The notes below the pieces were generated by a model. The model saw only the letters and a program-made list of their open reading frames with translations, was not told where the DNA came from and did not search any database. DNA of 32,000 nt from Propionibacterium freudenreichii subsp. freudenreichii (GTDB taxonomy: Bacteria; Actinomycetota; Actinomycetes; Propionibacteriales; Propionibacteriaceae): assembly GCF_000940845.1 (NCBI RefSeq), contig NZ_CP010341.1, forward strand, positions 1,830,001-1,862,000. Direction: 5' to 3'. Numbering within the stretch: position 1 is the stretch's first letter; the number at the start of each line of letters is the position of its first letter. Positions 22,732 to 32,000 of the stretch are shown here, one piece after another. The translations under genes were made by a program, and so were the position numbers.

Positions 22732-23688
22732 CTAGTCGGCGCTGATCGCCTGTCCCTTGCCGTCCACCAGCATGCTCAACGCGATGCCATCGAGGATGTC
22801 GGACTCGCTCACCACGAGTTCGGGTGCCCCCACGCGGGAGGCGACCTCCTCGACGATCAGGGCCCCGGCGCACAACACCTCGGCACGCTGCGGCTGCACG
22901 GGCCCCCAGCTGACCACCTCGGACACGGTGGCACCCAGCAGCCGATCAGCCACCTCGTGCACCGCTGCCTGGCTCAACACCGAGCCGTGCACGCGCGAGC
23001 GGTCGTAGCGGCGCAGGTGCTGTGCAAGGGCGGACATGGTGGTCACGGTGCCGGCCACGCCGATGAAGGTGCGGATGTCGGACAGCTCCACCCCGCTCGA
23101 GTCGAGCTCGGAGCGCACCAACTGCCGGGCACGGGCGATCTCGTCGGCCGTGGGCGGGTCAGAGCGCAGGATGCGCTCGCGCAGTCGCCGGGAACCGATG
23201 TTGAGGCTCACCGACGCGTCGATGTGGGCCAGGTCCGCGCCCGCGCCGACGCCGCGCACCAGCTCGGTGGATCCCCCACCGGAGTCCATCACCAACACCG
23301 GGTCGGCCTTGGACCGGATGCCCGACAGGGCCCCCCGGAAACTCAGGTGCGCCTCTTCCTGCCCCGACACCACCTCGGCGTTGATGCCCAGCCGGGCGCG
23401 CACCCCACGGAACAGCTCGTCGCGGTTCTGGGCGTCGCGGGTGGCCGAGGTGGCCACGAAGCGTCCCCGCTCGCAGTCGAGGTCGGCAATGATCTCGTTG
23501 AACTGCTCGCAGGCGTCGAACGCGCGGTTGAGGGCATCGGGGGCGAACAGGCCGGTGGCGTCGACGCCCTGACCCAACCCCACGAACAACAGCCTGCGGT
23601 CGTATTCGTGCAGCGATCCATCGGGGTTGAGGCTTGCCACGAACAACCTCATCGTGTTCGTTCCGCAGTCGATCGCCGCAACCCTCAT
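22732..23688 (-). CDS. ppx: Ppx/GppA-family phosphatase (exopolyphosphatase-like)
   Basis: The N-terminus is the ASKHA-fold motif MRVAAIDCGTNTMRLFVA. Also present are ATSATRDAQN and the DSGGGSTE phosphate loop. The start overlaps the stop of the upstream DUF501 gene by 4 nt. Confidence 0.85.
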   Translation of the reverse strand: MRVAAIDCGTNTMRLFVASLNPDGSLHEYDRRLLFVGLGQGVDATGLFAPDALNRAFDACEQFNEIIADLDCERGRFVATSATRDAQNRDELFRGVRARLGINAEVVSGQEEAHLSFRGALSGIRSKADPVLVMDSGGGSTELVRGVGAGADLAHIDASVSLNIGSRRLRERILRSDPPTADEIARARQLVRSELDSSGVELSDIRTFIGVAGTVTTMSALAQHLRRYDRSRVHGSVLSQAAVHEVADRLLGATVSEVVSWGPVQPQRAEVLCAGALIVEEVASRVGAPELVVSESDILDGIALSMLVDGKGQAISAD

Positions 23689-25198: not shown

Positions 25199-26500
<1,302 letters not shown>

Positions 26501-26602: not shown

Positions 26603-27274
26603 TCAGGACTGTTCGGCGGCCCTGATTTCGGCCTCCCAGCGGCGCAATGCCGCGCGCGTGGCCTGGTCCGCGTCCACTCCGACGCGTTGGGCCCGGCGCA
26701 CGAGGCTGAGAATCTTCTCGCCGGCCTCACGATCACTGATCGAAAGGTCCTCATCCTGGGCCGGCCCCATGTCGGGACCCACGTCGTGCACCCGCTGGGC
26801 CACCTTGGCCGCCCGCGCCAGCGTGGGCAGGGCGTCGGCGATGCCGTCCAACGACGAATCGCGATGCTTGGCGGCCTTCTTGCGTCGTTCCCAGCTGGCG
26901 TCGAGGTCATCGGGCACCTCGGCGTCGCCATAGACATAGGGATGGCGGGCAATGAGCTTGTCGGTGATGCCGCGCACCACCTCGGCGATGTCGTATTCGC
27001 CCTCGTCAGAGGCGATGGACGCGTGGAAGACCACCTGCATCAGCAGGTCGCCGAGCTCCTCGCGCTGGTCATCGGCCGTGCCGACCTCGATGGCGTCCAC
27101 CACCTCGGCCGTCTCCTCGATGAGGTGCTTCACCAGGCTGAGATGGGTCTGCCTGGCGTCCCAGGGGCATTCGATGCGCAGCGTCTGGTTCACTGCCACG
27201 AGCCGGGCGAATTCCTCGCCGGCCCGTTGGGCCGCCGCGGGCAACGAGCCCACATCGTCGGGGCGCTGGTTCAT
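26603..27274 (-). CDS. mazG: MazG nucleoside triphosphate pyrophosphohydrolase
   Basis: The ATG at 27274 overlaps the upstream stop (TGATG). Motifs present: LRIECPWDARQTHLSLVKHLIEETAEVVDAIE, EELGDLLMQVVFHA, ARHPYVYG. Confidence 0.85.
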   Translation of the reverse strand: MNQRPDDVGSLPAAAQRAGEEFARLVAVNQTLRIECPWDARQTHLSLVKHLIEETAEVVDAIEVGTADDQREELGDLLMQVVFHASIASDEGEYDIAEVVRGITDKLIARHPYVYGDAEVPDDLDASWERRKKAAKHRDSSLDGIADALPTLARAAKVAQRVHDVGPDMGPAQDEDLSISDREAGEKILSLVRRAQRVGVDADQATRAALRRWEAEIRAAEQS

Positions 27275-27807
27275 CAGCGGTCGGTGCTCAGCTTCGACAG
27301 TGATCCGGTACCGGCCACGGCAAAGTCGGTGGGGCTCCACGCGCCGTAGCGCGGGTTCACCACGGGGGCCAGCGAGGCGGCGTCCTTCTGCACGTTCTTG
27401 CCCTTGGCCGACAGCACCAGGGCCGTCAGGCGCAGCTGTCCGTCAACCGCCTGGGCGCAGTCATTGTCGGCCAACAGGCCCCGCGCATTGCCCAGGGCCT
27501 GCTTGGCCTGGTCCATGTCGGAATCCGACAGCGTCACGCCGTACTCGCGCGCCAGCTGATCGGCGATCATGCCCTCGCCCACATAGGAGACCACCACGCG
27601 GCGGATGTCCCCGGGCGTGTACTGGCCGGCGCCGCCCCCGGCGTCCAGCATCTTCGAGCAACCGTCGGCGTAACGGGTGATGGTCGACTCGCTGACCCGG
27701 GCACCGTCCAGCTCGATGGCCGTTGCGGGGCTGGGTGAGCAGCCGGCGAACATGGCAAGCGCCGCGGCGGGCACACCAATCCTGACGAGCAGCGAACGCC
27801 TGGACAT
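27274..27807 (-). CDS. Putative lipoprotein (unknown function)
   Basis: The ATG at 27807 follows GAAGGAGTTACTCG. The signal peptide has a lipobox (AALAMFAGC|SPS). The gene sits between mfd and mazG. Confidence 0.7.
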   Translation of the reverse strand: MSRRSLLVRIGVPAAALAMFAGCSPSPATAIELDGARVSESTITRYADGCSKMLDAGGGAGQYTPGDIRRVVVSYVGEGMIADQLAREYGVTLSDSDMDQAKQALGNARGLLADNDCAQAVDGQLRLTALVLSAKGKNVQKDAASLAPVVNPRYGAWSPTDFAVAGTGSLSKLSTDR

Positions 27808-27927: not shown

Positions 27928-27933
27928 CCTAGC
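27928..27933. repeat. 6-bp target-site duplication CCTAGC (left copy)
   Basis: An identical hexamer sits immediately outside each IS terminus. It fits the NCTAGN target known for IS481. Confidence 0.8.
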
Positions 27934-28930
27934 TGTACTTCCCCGTGACGTTGTGAACGCGGGCTGAGGGAGTCTGGCCGCCGATCCCGGTGTGGGGTCT
28001 GTGGTGATTGTAGTGATGGAGCCAGGTCTCGTAGGCTGCGGCGCGCTCGGCTTCGCTGGCGTAGGGCTTCGCGTAGGCCCACTCGACGGCGAGGGTTCGG
28101 TTGAACCGCTCGACCTTGCCGTTGGTCTGCGGCCGGTATGGCCGGGTCCACTTGTGCTTCACCTCGTCGCCGAGCGCGTCAGCGAAGGCGCCTGACCGGT
28201 AGCAGGAACCGTTGTCGGTCATCACCGCGGTGACTGTGACGCCCAGGCCTGCGAAGAACGCGTTCGCGCGGGTCCAGAACCCCGCTGCGGTCTCTTTGCG
28301 CTCGTCGTCAAGGATCTCTGAGTACGCGATCCGGGAGTGGTCGTCCACGGCGTGGTGCAGATACCGGTAGCCGCGAGAGCCGGCTGCCCCGGCACGGGCT
28401 GCCTTGTCGCGGGCCACTCCCGCGTGACGGTCCTGCATGGATCCGCGACCGTGGGCACGCCACCCGCCGCCGTCGGGGATCCGGCCTTGTTTCTTGATAT
28501 CTACGTGCACGAGCTGGCCCGGCGCGGCGACCTCGTACCGTGTCGGCTTCGGGCGGCGAACCGGCAGCCCGGTGGCCTGGTCGATGTTGATCAGCTTCGG
28601 CATCTTGTATCGGGCGAGCACCCGACCGACCGTGGAACGGTGCAACCGCAGGTGATACGCGATCCGGTGCGGACCCCACCGGCGAGTGAACCGCAACGCG
28701 ACGATCCGATGCTCCGTCTTACGCGAAAGCCGGTTCGGTGACGAGGTGGGCCTCGAACTACGGTCGATCAACGGCAGCCCTGCCCGGTACCTGTCGGCCC
28801 ACCGCTTCACCGTCGCGGGCGAGCACTGGAACCGTTCCGCCGCCCGCCGCAACGACCAGCCCTGTTCCACGACGAGAACAGCAAGACGACGACGCCCTTC
28901 CGGTGTCAAGGGTGCGTTAGCGTGAGTCAC
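27929..28930 (-). CDS. IS481-family DDE transposase
   Basis: The GTG at 28930 follows GGAGGTCTTC. There is an N-terminal HTH (GWSLRRAAERFQCSPATVKRWADRY). The DDE triad contexts are LVHVDIKK, AVMTDNGSCY and PQTNGKVERFNRTL. The ORF reads through the terminal IR, and its TAG (27929-27931) lies in the flanking target duplication. Confidence 0.9.
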   Translation of the reverse strand: MTHANAPLTPEGRRRLAVLVVEQGWSLRRAAERFQCSPATVKRWADRYRAGLPLIDRSSRPTSSPNRLSRKTEHRIVALRFTRRWGPHRIAYHLRLHRSTVGRVLARYKMPKLINIDQATGLPVRRPKPTRYEVAAPGQLVHVDIKKQGRIPDGGGWRAHGRGSMQDRHAGVARDKAARAGAAGSRGYRYLHHAVDDHSRIAYSEILDDERKETAAGFWTRANAFFAGLGVTVTAVMTDNGSCYRSGAFADALGDEVKHKWTRPYRPQTNGKVERFNRTLAVEWAYAKPYASEAERAAAYETWLHHYNHHRPHTGIGGQTPSARVHNVTGKYS

Positions 28931-29026
28931 GAAGACCTCCGTGGTCAGGAGAGTGAGTGTGGTAACCCACATCCTGCCCGGAGGTCTTCGCTACCTCACC
29001 CGTTCACAACCTCCCGGGGAAGTACA
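27934..29026 (-). mobile_element. IS481-family insertion sequence, complete (1093 bp)
   Basis: The terminal inverted repeats are TGTACTTCCCCGTGACGTTGTGAACG (27934 onward) and the reverse complement of the right end, TGTACTTCCCCGGGAGGTTGTGAACG, matching at 24 of 26 positions. The element carries a single DDE transposase ORF and is flanked by 6-bp CCTAGC direct repeats. Confidence 0.9.
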
Positions 29027-29032
29027 CCTAGC
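29027..29032. repeat. 6-bp target-site duplication CCTAGC (right copy; contains the mfd stop codon)
   Basis: This hexamer is identical to the one at 27928-27933. The minus-strand TAG at 29028-29030 terminates the mfd ORF. Confidence 0.8.
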
Positions 29033-32000
29033 CCGCGGCGGCACCGGCGGTTGCCCCCACCGTGTCACCTGCAGTGTTGCCGGCGGTGCCCTGCCGCCTG
29101 GGGGCATCGGGCAGCAGGATGTCGCGCACGAACCCGGAGGCCCAGGCGATCAACTCGTCGCCGATGATGGGCTGGCCACCGACCTTGGCGGTGCGCGGTG
29201 CGGGCACCAGGGCCAGGTTGGCGGCGTTCTTCACCAGGGTGCCCGGGTAGAGCCGGTCGAGGCGCACCCGGCGCGAGTCGGGCAGCGACAGTTCGGTGCC
29301 GTCGGGGGCCCGGCGTCCGGCAATCGGCGCAAACCTGATGGATCGGCCCTGGCTCATCACCTCGGTGAGTCCTGCCTGACGGCACAGCAGCCTGAAGGCC
29401 GCCACCGTCAGCAACGATTCGGCCTGCTCGGGCACGGGGCCGTAGCGGTCCTGCAGCTCGCCGCGCAGCGCCTCGATGTCGTCGGTGCTGGTGACCTCGG
29501 CGATGCGCTTGTACATCTCCAGGCGCAACCGCTCCGATTCCACATAGTCCTCGGGCAGGTGGGCGTTGACGGGCAGCTCGATGCGCATCGGCTTCTCCTC
29601 CTCGCCCGGGCCATCGCCCTTGAACTCGGCGACGGCCTCCCCCACCAGGCGCAGGTAGAGGTCGAAGCCGACGTCGGCGATGTGGCCGGACTGCTCATCG
29701 CCCAGCAGGTTGCCGGCGCCACGGATCTCCAGGTCCTTCATGGCAATCGCCATGCCGGCGCCCAACTCGTTGTTGGCGGCCAGCGCGGCGAGCCGGTCAT
29801 GCGCCGTGGTGGTGAGCGTGCGGTCACCGGGGTACAGGAAGTATGCGTAACCGCGCTCGCGGCTGCGTCCCACCCGGCCGCGCAGCTGGTGCATCTGCGA
29901 CAGGCCCATGTGGTCGGCACGATCCACGATCAGGGTGTTGGCGGTGGGGATGTCCAGGCCGGCCTCGACGATGGTGGTGCACACCAGCACGTCGGCGCGC
30001 CGCTCCCAGAAGTCGACCATCACCTTCTCCAGGGTCTTCTCGCTCATCTGCCCATGGGCGGTGACCACGCGGGCCTCCGGCACCATCTCGCGGATGCGGG
30101 CGGCCACCCGATCGATGCTGGCCACCCGGTTGTGCACCAGGAACACCTGGCCCTCACGTGCCATCTCGCGACGGATCGCGGCCAGCACCTGGCCCTCGTC
30201 ATAGGGGCCGGCGAAGGTGAGCACGGGGTGACGTTCCTCCGGTGGCGTGGTGATGGTGCTCATCTCGCGGATACCGGTCACCGCCATCTCCAGGGTGCGC
30301 GGGATGGGGGTGGCACTCATCGAGAGCACATCGACGTTGACGCGCAGCTTCTTCAGCGCCTCCTTGTGCTCCACACCGAAACGCTGTTCCTCGTCGATGA
30401 TCACCAGGCCGAGGTCCTTGTAGTGCACCTTGGACGACAACAGCCGATGGGTGCCGATCACCACGTCGACCTTGCCCTGCGCCATCTCCTCCAGGGTGGT
30501 GGCCACCTCCTTCTCGGTCTGGAAGCGGCTCAGCTGGGCCACCGTCACGGGAAAGCCCGAGTAGCGCTCGGCGAAGGTCTGGTAGTGCTGCTGCACCAGC
30601 AGCGTGGTGGGCACCAGCACGGCCACCTGCTTGCCGTCCTGCACGGCCTTGAAGGCGGCACGCACGGCGATCTCGGTCTTGCCGTAGCCGACGTCACCAC
30701 AGATCAACCGGTCCATCGGCACGATCTGCTCCATGTCGTGCTTCACGTCGGTGATGCAGGCGAGCTGGTCGGGGGTCTCCTCGTAGCGGAAGGCGTCCTC
30801 CATCTCGTGTTGCCAGGGGGTGTCGGGGCTGAAGGCATGTCCGCGCGAGGCCTGGCGGGCCGCGTACAGCTTGATCAGGCCGGCAGCCACCTGGCGTACG
30901 GCCTTGCGGGCGCGGCTCTTGCGGTGCTTCCACTCGGCGCCGCCCATCTTGTCGAGCGCCGGTGCCTCACCACCCACGTAGCGGGTCACCTGGTCGAGCT
31001 GGTCCATCGGCACATAGAGGCGATCGCCGGGCTGCCCGCGCTTGGACGCCGCATATTCGATCACCATGTACTCACGGGTGGCCCCTGCCACCGTGCGCTG
31101 GGTCATCTCCACGAAGCGTCCGACACCGTGCTGCTCGTGCACCAGGGGGTCGCCGGGCTTCAGCTCCAGGGGCACCACCTGGTTGCGGCGCTTGGTGGGC
31201 ATCTTGCGCGACGAGCGGTCTGCGTTGGGCTGGTTGGTGATGTCGCCGGCGGCCACCAGGGTGAGCTTGAGGTCGGGGGCGCGGAAGCCGTGGCGCAGTC
31301 CCGACAGGATGATGGACACCACATGGGGCTCGGGCTCATCGGGCAGTTCGTCGAGCACGCGGGCGGGCGTGTCATGGTCGCGCAGCATCTCGGCCATGCG
31401 GTTGGCCAGTCCCTTGCCCTCGACGCTGGACACCACGCGCCAACCGCGGGCCAGATCATCGGTCATGGTGGCGATGGCCTTCTCGGCGTCGCCGCGCCAG
31501 CCGGGCAGCGGCTCCATGTCGAGGATCATCTCGGGGATCCCCCCGGCGAACGCCGCGTCGGCGGCCGAGACGGATTCGCCCGCGGATGCGGATTCTCCGG
31601 TGGGGTCCTCGCCCTGCGGGGCACTGTCGGGTGCCGCGGCGAAGGCCGACAGGCTCCACCAGCCCTGGCCGATGTCGAGGCTGTGCTGGCGCACATCGGC
31701 CAGCTCCTGGTACGACGACGCGGCCAGGTCGATGGGGGCCTTGCCGCCCGCGGCAGCAGCCGCCCACGAGGCGTGCAGGAACTCCTGGCTGGTGCGCACC
31801 AGGTCGGCGGCGCGGGTGCGCACCAGCTCCGGGTCGCAGACCAGGGTGAGGGTTTCGGGGGCCATCACGTCGACGAGCAGCTCCACGCCGTCGGCAAGCG
31901 CCGGGATGAGGGCCTCCATGCCCTCCACCGACTGGCCCTGCGAGATCTTCTCCAGCATCTCGGACAGTTCGGGGTGGGCGTCGACGAGGGCGGCCGCGCG
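29028..32000 (-). CDS. mfd: Transcription-repair coupling factor Mfd (N-terminal part lies beyond the window edge)
   Basis: The frame is open from the window end to the TAG at 29028. The RNAP-interacting domain ([15 protein letters not shown]) is present. Superfamily-2 helicase motifs are present ([45 protein letters not shown]), as is the TRG region. Confidence 0.95.

Follow-up and report, generated by a model that had tools for sequence, protein, structure and literature searches.

ISPfr17 is catalogued as an insertion sequence (IS) of the IS481 family in the type strain of Propionibacterium freudenreichii, CIRM-BIA1, which carries one complete and one partial copy of it (Falentin et al. 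2010, PMC2909200, Table S2). For several members of this family, it has been reported that the transposase gene finds its stop codon in the duplicated target. ISLxc2 and ISLxx4 of Leifsonia xyli, which are approximately 1.1 kb long and encode a transposase of 332 aa, take this stop from the duplicated NCTAGN of the host site (PMC2516522). In Rhodococcus equi, the IS481-family element ISRe46/TnRErm46 is flanked by an NCTAGN duplication in which one TAG is the stop codon of the transposase and the other is that of the target gene, for example of an intact parB (Alvarez-Narvaez et al. 2019, PMC6794481). IS481 of Bordetella pertussis, with which the family was founded, is a distant, proteobacterial relative that is present in hundreds of copies and shares the NCTAGN target with the element studied here; its effects on neighbouring genes are documented (PMC3053399). 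Both this type of element and the use of a CTAG as a shared stop are, therefore, already known for the IS481 family.

With regard to the control of transposase synthesis, the parallels come from other families. In IS200, a stem-loop of the 5’UTR sequesters the Shine-Dalgarno (SD) sequence and represses translation of the transposase (Ellis et al. 2015, PMC4513863). The IS200 enzyme is a HUH transposase, of a family unrelated to the IS481 type. Fold-back inhibition of read-through transcripts that come from outside is known for IS10 and IS50, whose transposases, of the DDE Tn5 type, are also of a family unrelated to the IS481-type element.

In this work, we analysed a stretch of 32,000 nucleotides from P. 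freudenreichii subsp. freudenreichii (assembly GCF_000940845.1, contig NZ_CP010341.1, positions 1,830,001 to 1,862,000), referred to as the window, whose numbering is used for all coordinates below. An earlier note, made from the letters of the sequence alone, had described in it an IS481-family element inserted at the stop codon of mfd. Our analysis indicates, with a high degree of confidence, that the locus holds a recent and strain-specific insertion of ISPfr17 at the CTAG of the mfd stop codon, that the stop codon of its transposase is taken from the target, that its leader pairs the ribosome-binding site, and that the insertion is probably nearly neutral.

Borders and identity of the element

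The IS occupies positions 27934 to 29026, on the minus strand, and has a length of 1093 bp, within the range of approximately 1 to 1.3 kb of IS481-family elements with inverted repeats. Its two terminal inverted repeats, each of 26 nt and starting with TGT, match at 24 of 26 positions, with no such pair expected by chance. The repeat at the transposase-stop end (27934 to 27959) is TGTACTTCCCCGTGACGTTGTGAACG, without mismatches to our search pattern, while the one at the transposase-start end (29001 to 29026, read on the minus strand from 29026 to 29001) is TGTACTTCCCCGGGAGGTTGTGAACG. The hexamer CCTAGC flanks the element on both sides, at 27928 to 27933 on the left and at 29027 to 29032 on the right. 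Because the empty sites described below carry a single CCTAGC, these hexamers are a true target-site duplication of 6 bp, as the earlier note had proposed, and its borders for a complete 1093-bp element and the repeat match that it gave were reproduced. A search of the window with the repeat pattern found no copy of the IS besides the one at 27934 to 29026.

The transposase gene extends on the minus strand from a GTG start codon at 28930, located after a GGAGG, to position 27929, and encodes 333 aa. The product combines an N-terminal helix-turn-helix/leucine-zipper region with an rve core: in Pfam, it matches rve, rve_3, HTH_23, and LZ_Tnp_IS481 (28.9 bits vs 22.2), and it reaches 344.8 bits with the NCBIfam profile NF033577 (transpos_IS481), for which the cutoff is 224. 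Its DDE motifs are HVD (D144), TDN (D239), and KVE (E274), with a D-E spacing of 35 residues. These matches back the family assignment that had been made without database searches. A longer ORF of 347 aa, beginning at the upstream ATG at 28972, was considered as the true start and rejected, since the same frame meets a TGA in relatives; the GTG or ATG start behind GGAGG, for its part, is conserved among them.

The 333-aa protein is identical to WP_044636817.1, recorded as the “IS481-like element ISPfr17 family transposase” of P. freudenreichii, and the identical transposase is encoded by several complete genomes of this species. The window element has in common with the ISPfr17 of CIRM-BIA1 the species, the IS family, and the name of the transposase record. 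It appears to be this already named element, an assignment that goes through protein identity with the NCBI record rather than through the ISfinder nucleotide entry.

Two stop codons in one duplicated target

The 3’ part of mfd, the gene for the transcription-repair coupling factor, is located at 29028 to 32000 on the minus strand, with a frame that is open to the edge of the window. Its product contains the RNA-polymerase-interacting domain, the superfamily-2 helicase core, and the C-terminal TRCF domain of Mfd proteins (Pfam CarD_TRCF_RID, DEAD, Helicase_C, and TRCF); full-length orthologues have 1231 aa, in which UvrB_inter is also present. The frame ends in ...GAAAG*, with its TAG at 29030 to 29028 inside the right CCTAGC, and the IS begins one base later. 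Thus, the previous proposal that the TAG of the right copy is the mfd stop codon, that the CTAG of this stop served as the NCTAGN target, and that the IS lies 1 nt past the stop with the mfd frame unchanged is borne out by the translation, which ends there.

What the earlier note had missed is that the transposase gene is not closed by a stop codon of the IS itself. Its reading frame crosses the inverted repeat and ends in ...KYS*, with the codons AGC TAG spanning the border between the IS and the duplication. The final sense codon is split, the A coming from the IS and the GC from the duplication, and the stop TAG (27931 to 27929 on the minus strand) is located within the left CCTAGC, outside the element. 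This is the arrangement of stop codons described for ISRe46, although ISRe46 has other inverted repeats (TGTTGCGGGTCATGACGTTG) and moves a cargo transposon of 6.9 kb that carries erm(46), whereas the element at mfd is a plain IS of 1.1 kb. The similarity to ISLxc2 and ISLxx4 extends to the size, the NCTAGN duplication, and the stop codon taken from the insertion site; in contrast, the inverted repeats of the Leifsonia elements are different, and ISLxc2 has an in-frame stop, while the ORF in the window is intact.

In the mechanism that we propose, the transposase would pick a CTAG and make a staggered cut of 6 bp, which would lead to the duplication of NCTAGN. The CTAG used here consists of the stop codon of mfd and the base just before it, at the end of the preceding sense codon (GGC TAG), so that mfd retains its full frame and its own stop codon, and the transposase ORF is closed by the TAG of the other copy of the duplication.

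The genes that follow the element

Beyond the IS, the minus strand carries the gene of a putative lipoprotein of 177 aa (27274 to 27807; N-terminus MSRRSLLVRIGVPAAALAMFAGC), a mazG-family gene (26603 to 27274; Pfam MazG), whose start overlaps the lipoprotein stop, and the enolase gene eno (25199 to 26488; Pfam Enolase_N and Enolase_C). The mazG assignment also agrees with the gene calls at the corresponding loci of the other P. freudenreichii genomes compared below. The lipoprotein was recognized from its translation, the N-terminus of which, ...AMFAGC, is of the lipoprotein type; a search of the 177-aa protein in Pfam and NCBIfam gave no match, and an identical lipoprotein adjoins mfd in many strains. 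Gene order and domains agree with the earlier description of an IS that parts mfd from the lipoprotein-mazG-eno genes.

The lipoprotein gene starts at a distance of 120 nt from the IS, and a promoter located within this stretch would therefore be undamaged. Folding of the 146 nt of the IS-lipoprotein interval revealed no unusual RNA structure (z = +0.68). Between 27200 and 29400, no intrinsic-terminator-like site was found on the minus strand with a simple E. coli-type consensus, which may miss actinobacterial signals, and the same caution applies to the sigma-70 consensus, with which no promoter-like site was found. With no predicted terminator on the coding strand, transcripts that continue past mfd or past the transposase gene could still extend into the lipoprotein-mazG-eno genes. 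With mfd intact and the 120 nt before the lipoprotein gene untouched, the insertion would be expected to be nearly neutral, and it is probably harmless or close to it.

Empty sites and a second occupied strain

At this locus, at least seven further genomes of P. freudenreichii have the sequence ...GCAGCCGGGGGCCTAGCCCGCGGCGG..., with one CCTAGC and no IS, which is the empty site that the earlier note had predicted for related strains. A look-up with the lipoprotein added 15 more places with the gene order of an empty site; counting gene order, 22 of 23 contigs are empty. In the type strain CIRM-BIA1, the locus tags of eno1 (17320), mazG (17330), and mfd (17350) leave no space for a transposase gene, and the mfd-mazG interval is unoccupied, unlike that of the window strain.

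The exception is LT576034.1, where this CTAG also holds the IS, but in reverse orientation and likewise flanked by two CCTAGC copies. The flanks of this locus and those of the window show 1 + 4 differences over 7.3 kb, and between the IS copies there are 3 differences in 1093 positions, two of which alter the protein. In LT576034.1, the transposase frame enters the opposite strand of the duplication and, therefore, ends in ACC TAG. We read this occupation as a second, independent insertion, which the earlier note had missed. Look-ups with the 333-aa and 347-aa forms of the transposase and with the lipoprotein returned no P. freudenreichii genome with the orientation of the window at mfd, and a scan of metagenome contigs for the pattern of the mfd-IS junction gave no match.

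Approximately 11 P. freudenreichii loci carry copies of ISPfr17 that differ at 0 to 3 nt in 1093 (99.7-100% identity), a near-identity that indicates recent spread or activity. One of these copies is sited 12 nt past the tuf stop codon and another between convergent gene ends; a third, located in a GTTAGG duplication, makes use of the TAA that closes a convergent gene, and yet another deprives an MFS transporter gene of its last two codons. The presence of near-identical copies at many loci, together with their polymorphic occupancy, bears indirectly on the copy-paste transposition proposed for the family. The insertion at mfd is a strain-specific and ordinary polymorphism of a catalogued IS.

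Target preference and use of stop codons across relatives

When genomes representing their species were scanned for the pattern of the inverted repeats, at least 120 stretches were obtained. Among the matches listed, the full-length copies are 78-87% identical to the window IS, and the host genera include Microbacterium, Acidipropionibacterium, Kocuria, Corynebacterium, Actinomyces, Nesterenkonia, and Gordonia, among others. In the 120 listed loci, which come from many Actinomycetota, NCTAGN flanks 131 of 153 IS ends, and TTAG or CTAA is found at 15. No target consensus wider than CTAG was found, although the first and last bases of the duplication are slightly more often G or C. The tetranucleotide is scarce in the window, with 9 occurrences compared to the 28.7 expected, two of the nine being the duplication; of its eight original CTAGs, two are stop codons of coding-like ORFs.

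In the same listed loci, the TAG or TAA of the duplication ends a coding-like ORF, according to a crude GC3-based definition, on approximately 20% of the occupied CTAG sides, compared to 6-10% of the unoccupied ones. The odds ratio is approximately 3, with p values of about 1e-4 to 1e-5, and is stable across thresholds. The enrichment was evaluated per IS end; whole empty sites could be reconstructed for 18 full copies with two flanks, too few for statistics. The P. freudenreichii copies described above agree with this pattern. Purifying selection acting against the disruption of genes would be enough to produce the enrichment, and active targeting is not required. As for the orientation of the IS with respect to the gene that ends at the duplicated stop, 12 cases involve the start end and 12 the stop end of the element; this even distribution argues against either a benefit or a cost of co-orientation.

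A conserved leader hairpin pairs the SD sequence and the start codon

The transposase GTG is located 96 nt inside the IS and 97 nt past the mfd stop codon. The earlier note had seen no hairpin between the two genes; on the contrary, this 96-nt leader folds strongly. The stretch of RNA that connects the mfd stop codon with the start of the transposase gene (131 nt) has a folding energy of -70.3 kcal/mol (z = -5.5), and none of 200 shuffled sequences was as stable. The hairpin extends from 28920 to 29001 on the minus strand, with a core stem in which positions 28991-28972 pair with 28950-28929. Its 3’ arm, ...CGGAGGUCUUCGUG, contains both the SD sequence GGAGG (28940-28936) and the GTG start codon (28930-28928), and both are paired.

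The structure is conserved. RNAalifold applied to 27 distinct leaders of relatives returns the same helix, and 6 of the 10 pairs of the helix that contains the SD sequence show compensatory double changes, such as the replacement of A-U by G-C in 7 sequences. In this helix, 95.5% of the alignment cells are paired, compared to 37-57% when the partners are slid, and covariation as strong as that observed was reached by none of 500 shuffles. The same fold, with different stem sequences, is found in more distant relatives that are 68-72% identical to the window IS, namely an element of the ISCmi2 type from a Clavibacter plasmid and others carried by plasmids of Mycobacterium and Rhodococcus. Rfam contains no family for this leader, and the literature that we searched yielded no description of a leader hairpin in the IS481 family. 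As an intrinsic terminator, the hairpin was rejected: no U-tract follows the stem, and the scan of the minus strand reports no terminator.

The logic of this leader resembles that of IS200, with the difference that here it is deduced from structure and covariation. By pairing the ribosome-binding site and the start codon, the hairpin would allow little translation of the transposase, and we infer that it may keep this translation low especially on RNA that enters from outside, for instance by read-through from mfd. Such an RNA holds both arms of the hairpin and is, therefore, expected to be poorly translated. In addition, the distance between the mfd stop codon and the 5’ arm exceeds 35 nt, so a ribosome that terminates there should not melt the structure.

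Discussion

The insertion could have functional consequences in two directions, as the earlier note had suggested: read-through from mfd might drive the transposase gene, and the IS might alter the expression of the lipoprotein-mazG-eno genes. The positional part of this proposal stands, given that the transposase gene is in the orientation of mfd and begins 96 nt downstream, and no terminator-like site is predicted on the minus strand either between mfd and the transposase gene or across the IS. The functional part does not fare as well. It was built on the absence of a hairpin, and it is weakened because that premise is wrong: the hairpin pairs the SD sequence and the start codon, it is conserved with compensatory changes, its 5’ arm is present on any read-through RNA, and this arm should be beyond the reach of a ribosome ending at the mfd stop. 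Nor does the orientation of the element suggest that co-orientation matters, with 12 cases against 12 among relatives and with the same mfd site occupied in the opposite direction in LT576034.1. For the genes downstream, the insertions of IS481 in Bordetella offer a precedent (PMC3053399), but the 120 nt that precede the lipoprotein gene are intact at the present locus. We consider it unlikely that mfd drives the transposase or that the IS changes the expression of these neighbours. A different history, in which the ancestor already had the IS here and the strains with an empty site lost it by precise excision, or in which the orientation in LT576034.1 arose by inversion in place, might be suggested by the occupation of one site in two strains with nearly identical flanks. 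We regard it as highly improbable: at least seven genomes, 22 of 23 contigs when gene order is counted, and the type strain have a clean empty site, so that one or two gains make a much more parsimonious history than precise excision, back to a single CCTAGC, in nearly all strains, and the 99.7-100% identity of the copies elsewhere indicates recent spread. Concerning inversion, there are 3 differences between the IS copies of the two strains, and their end-specific inverted repeats are whole, in swapped positions; we know of no inversion mechanism for a DDE IS with 26-nt repeats.

The two insertions, which we read as independent, in different strains, at an identical CTAG, and in opposite orientations, also raise the question of whether the mfd stop is a true hot spot by virtue of something beyond its CTAG, such as a local DNA structure or a targeting coupled to transcription where mfd ends. 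The roughly threefold higher frequency of stop codons among the occupied CTAGs than among the unoccupied ones would fit such a preference, but it is also what purifying selection is expected to leave behind, and the flanks outside the CTAG are almost without information. Moreover, a coincidence of two hits would have a probability of approximately 7-20% if only tolerated sites count, a rough estimate that uses about 11 distinct ISPfr17 sites and some 670 CTAGs per genome, extrapolated from 8 per 31 kb. A hot spot of this type seems to us quite doubtful. A broader and more speculative possibility, to which we give limited credence, is that the actinobacterial ISPfr17/ISCmi2 clade of the IS481 family has adapted to dock at TAG stop codons through the combination of a CTAG target, which puts many tolerated insertions right where genes end, a borrowed stop, and a hairpin that insulates the transposase from the transcription of the preceding gene, with the mfd stop as a recurrent landing site in both orientations. 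The reading that we prefer, a recent and nearly neutral insertion of ISPfr17 into a CTAG that happens to include the mfd stop codon, accounts for the locus with high probability.

By itself, the insertion at mfd matters little, as it is a strain polymorphism produced by a catalogued IS. It does have a practical side: the mfd-lipoprotein junction, with the presence or absence of the element and its two orientations, is a handy typing marker for dairy strains of P. freudenreichii. A point for annotation is that the transposase ORF of the ISPfr17 clade terminates outside the element. The aspects worth a small follow-up are the recurrent use of the mfd stop codon in both orientations and the leader hairpin that sequesters the ribosome-binding site. 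It is the hairpin that could hold the follow-up value, since it would offer a simple and testable example of how an IS that regularly lands behind genes escapes activation by them.

Distribution of the element in Actinomycetota

A scan of genome contigs indicates that IS copies carrying the same 26-nt inverted repeats are present in many genera of Actinomycetota, including, among the matches listed, Microbacterium, Acidipropionibacterium, Kocuria, Corynebacterium, Actinomyces, Nesterenkonia, and Gordonia. Inverted-repeat matches were found at no fewer than 120 loci (L019-L138), a host range that represents a lower bound, and the overall identity of the listed copies to the IS of the window is 78-87%. 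A copy 99.9% identical to the latter lies in a metagenome-assembled genome labelled Propionicimonas (locus L077), which may reflect either incorrect binning or transfer in the recent past.

Insertion sites and their duplications

Several metagenome contigs and one draft genome (loci L007-L010 and L140) share a common flank at the transposase-stop end of the IS, where the element and an RpiR/SIS-type regulator gene overlap at the 3' end of the gene, which adjoins a beta-galactosidase gene. This flank seems to correspond to the lactose locus of P. freudenreichii, which varies among strains. The opposite flank varies from contig to contig, a pattern typical of assemblies that collapse a repeat.

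In several full copies (L001, 2899-4003; loci L139, L141, and L142), the 6-bp duplication is imperfect. The mismatch affects only the outermost base, as in CCTAGG/GCTAGG and TCTAGC/GCTAGC; it could have arisen by recombination between copies, by point mutation, or through a stagger that is occasionally 5 bp. In CP124208.1 (L003, 1572-3997), two copies lie in inverted orientation, separated by 240 bp, in surroundings that look like an integrative or conjugative element, with ParB-like and DUF2637 genes. One of the two has the non-canonical duplication GCTAAG, by which its transposase stop becomes TAA.

The window contains a second CTAG that doubles as a stop codon (22732-22735), in a coding-like ORF of 333 codons on the minus strand. 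This site matches the mfd stop in kind but carries no insertion. Downstream of the IS, the stop codon of the lipoprotein gene and the start codon of mazG share a single base at 27274, which suggests that these two genes are translationally coupled.

Conservation of the leader hairpin and the copy behind tuf

The segment GGATGTGGGTTACCACACTC at the apex of the leader hairpin (window 28953-28972, minus strand; columns 32-52 of the leader alignment A1) is near-invariant across 27 leaders that diverge elsewhere. Judged from this alignment, its conservation exceeds what base pairing requires, and the apex could be a promoter element or protein-binding site.

In CP116039.1 (L002, 2880-2910), a copy of the window's IS lies 12 nt past the stop codon of tuf, the EF-Tu gene, and is co-oriented with it. 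The tuf gene is normally very highly expressed, and this copy would offer a naturally occurring test of whether the leader hairpin insulates the transposase.
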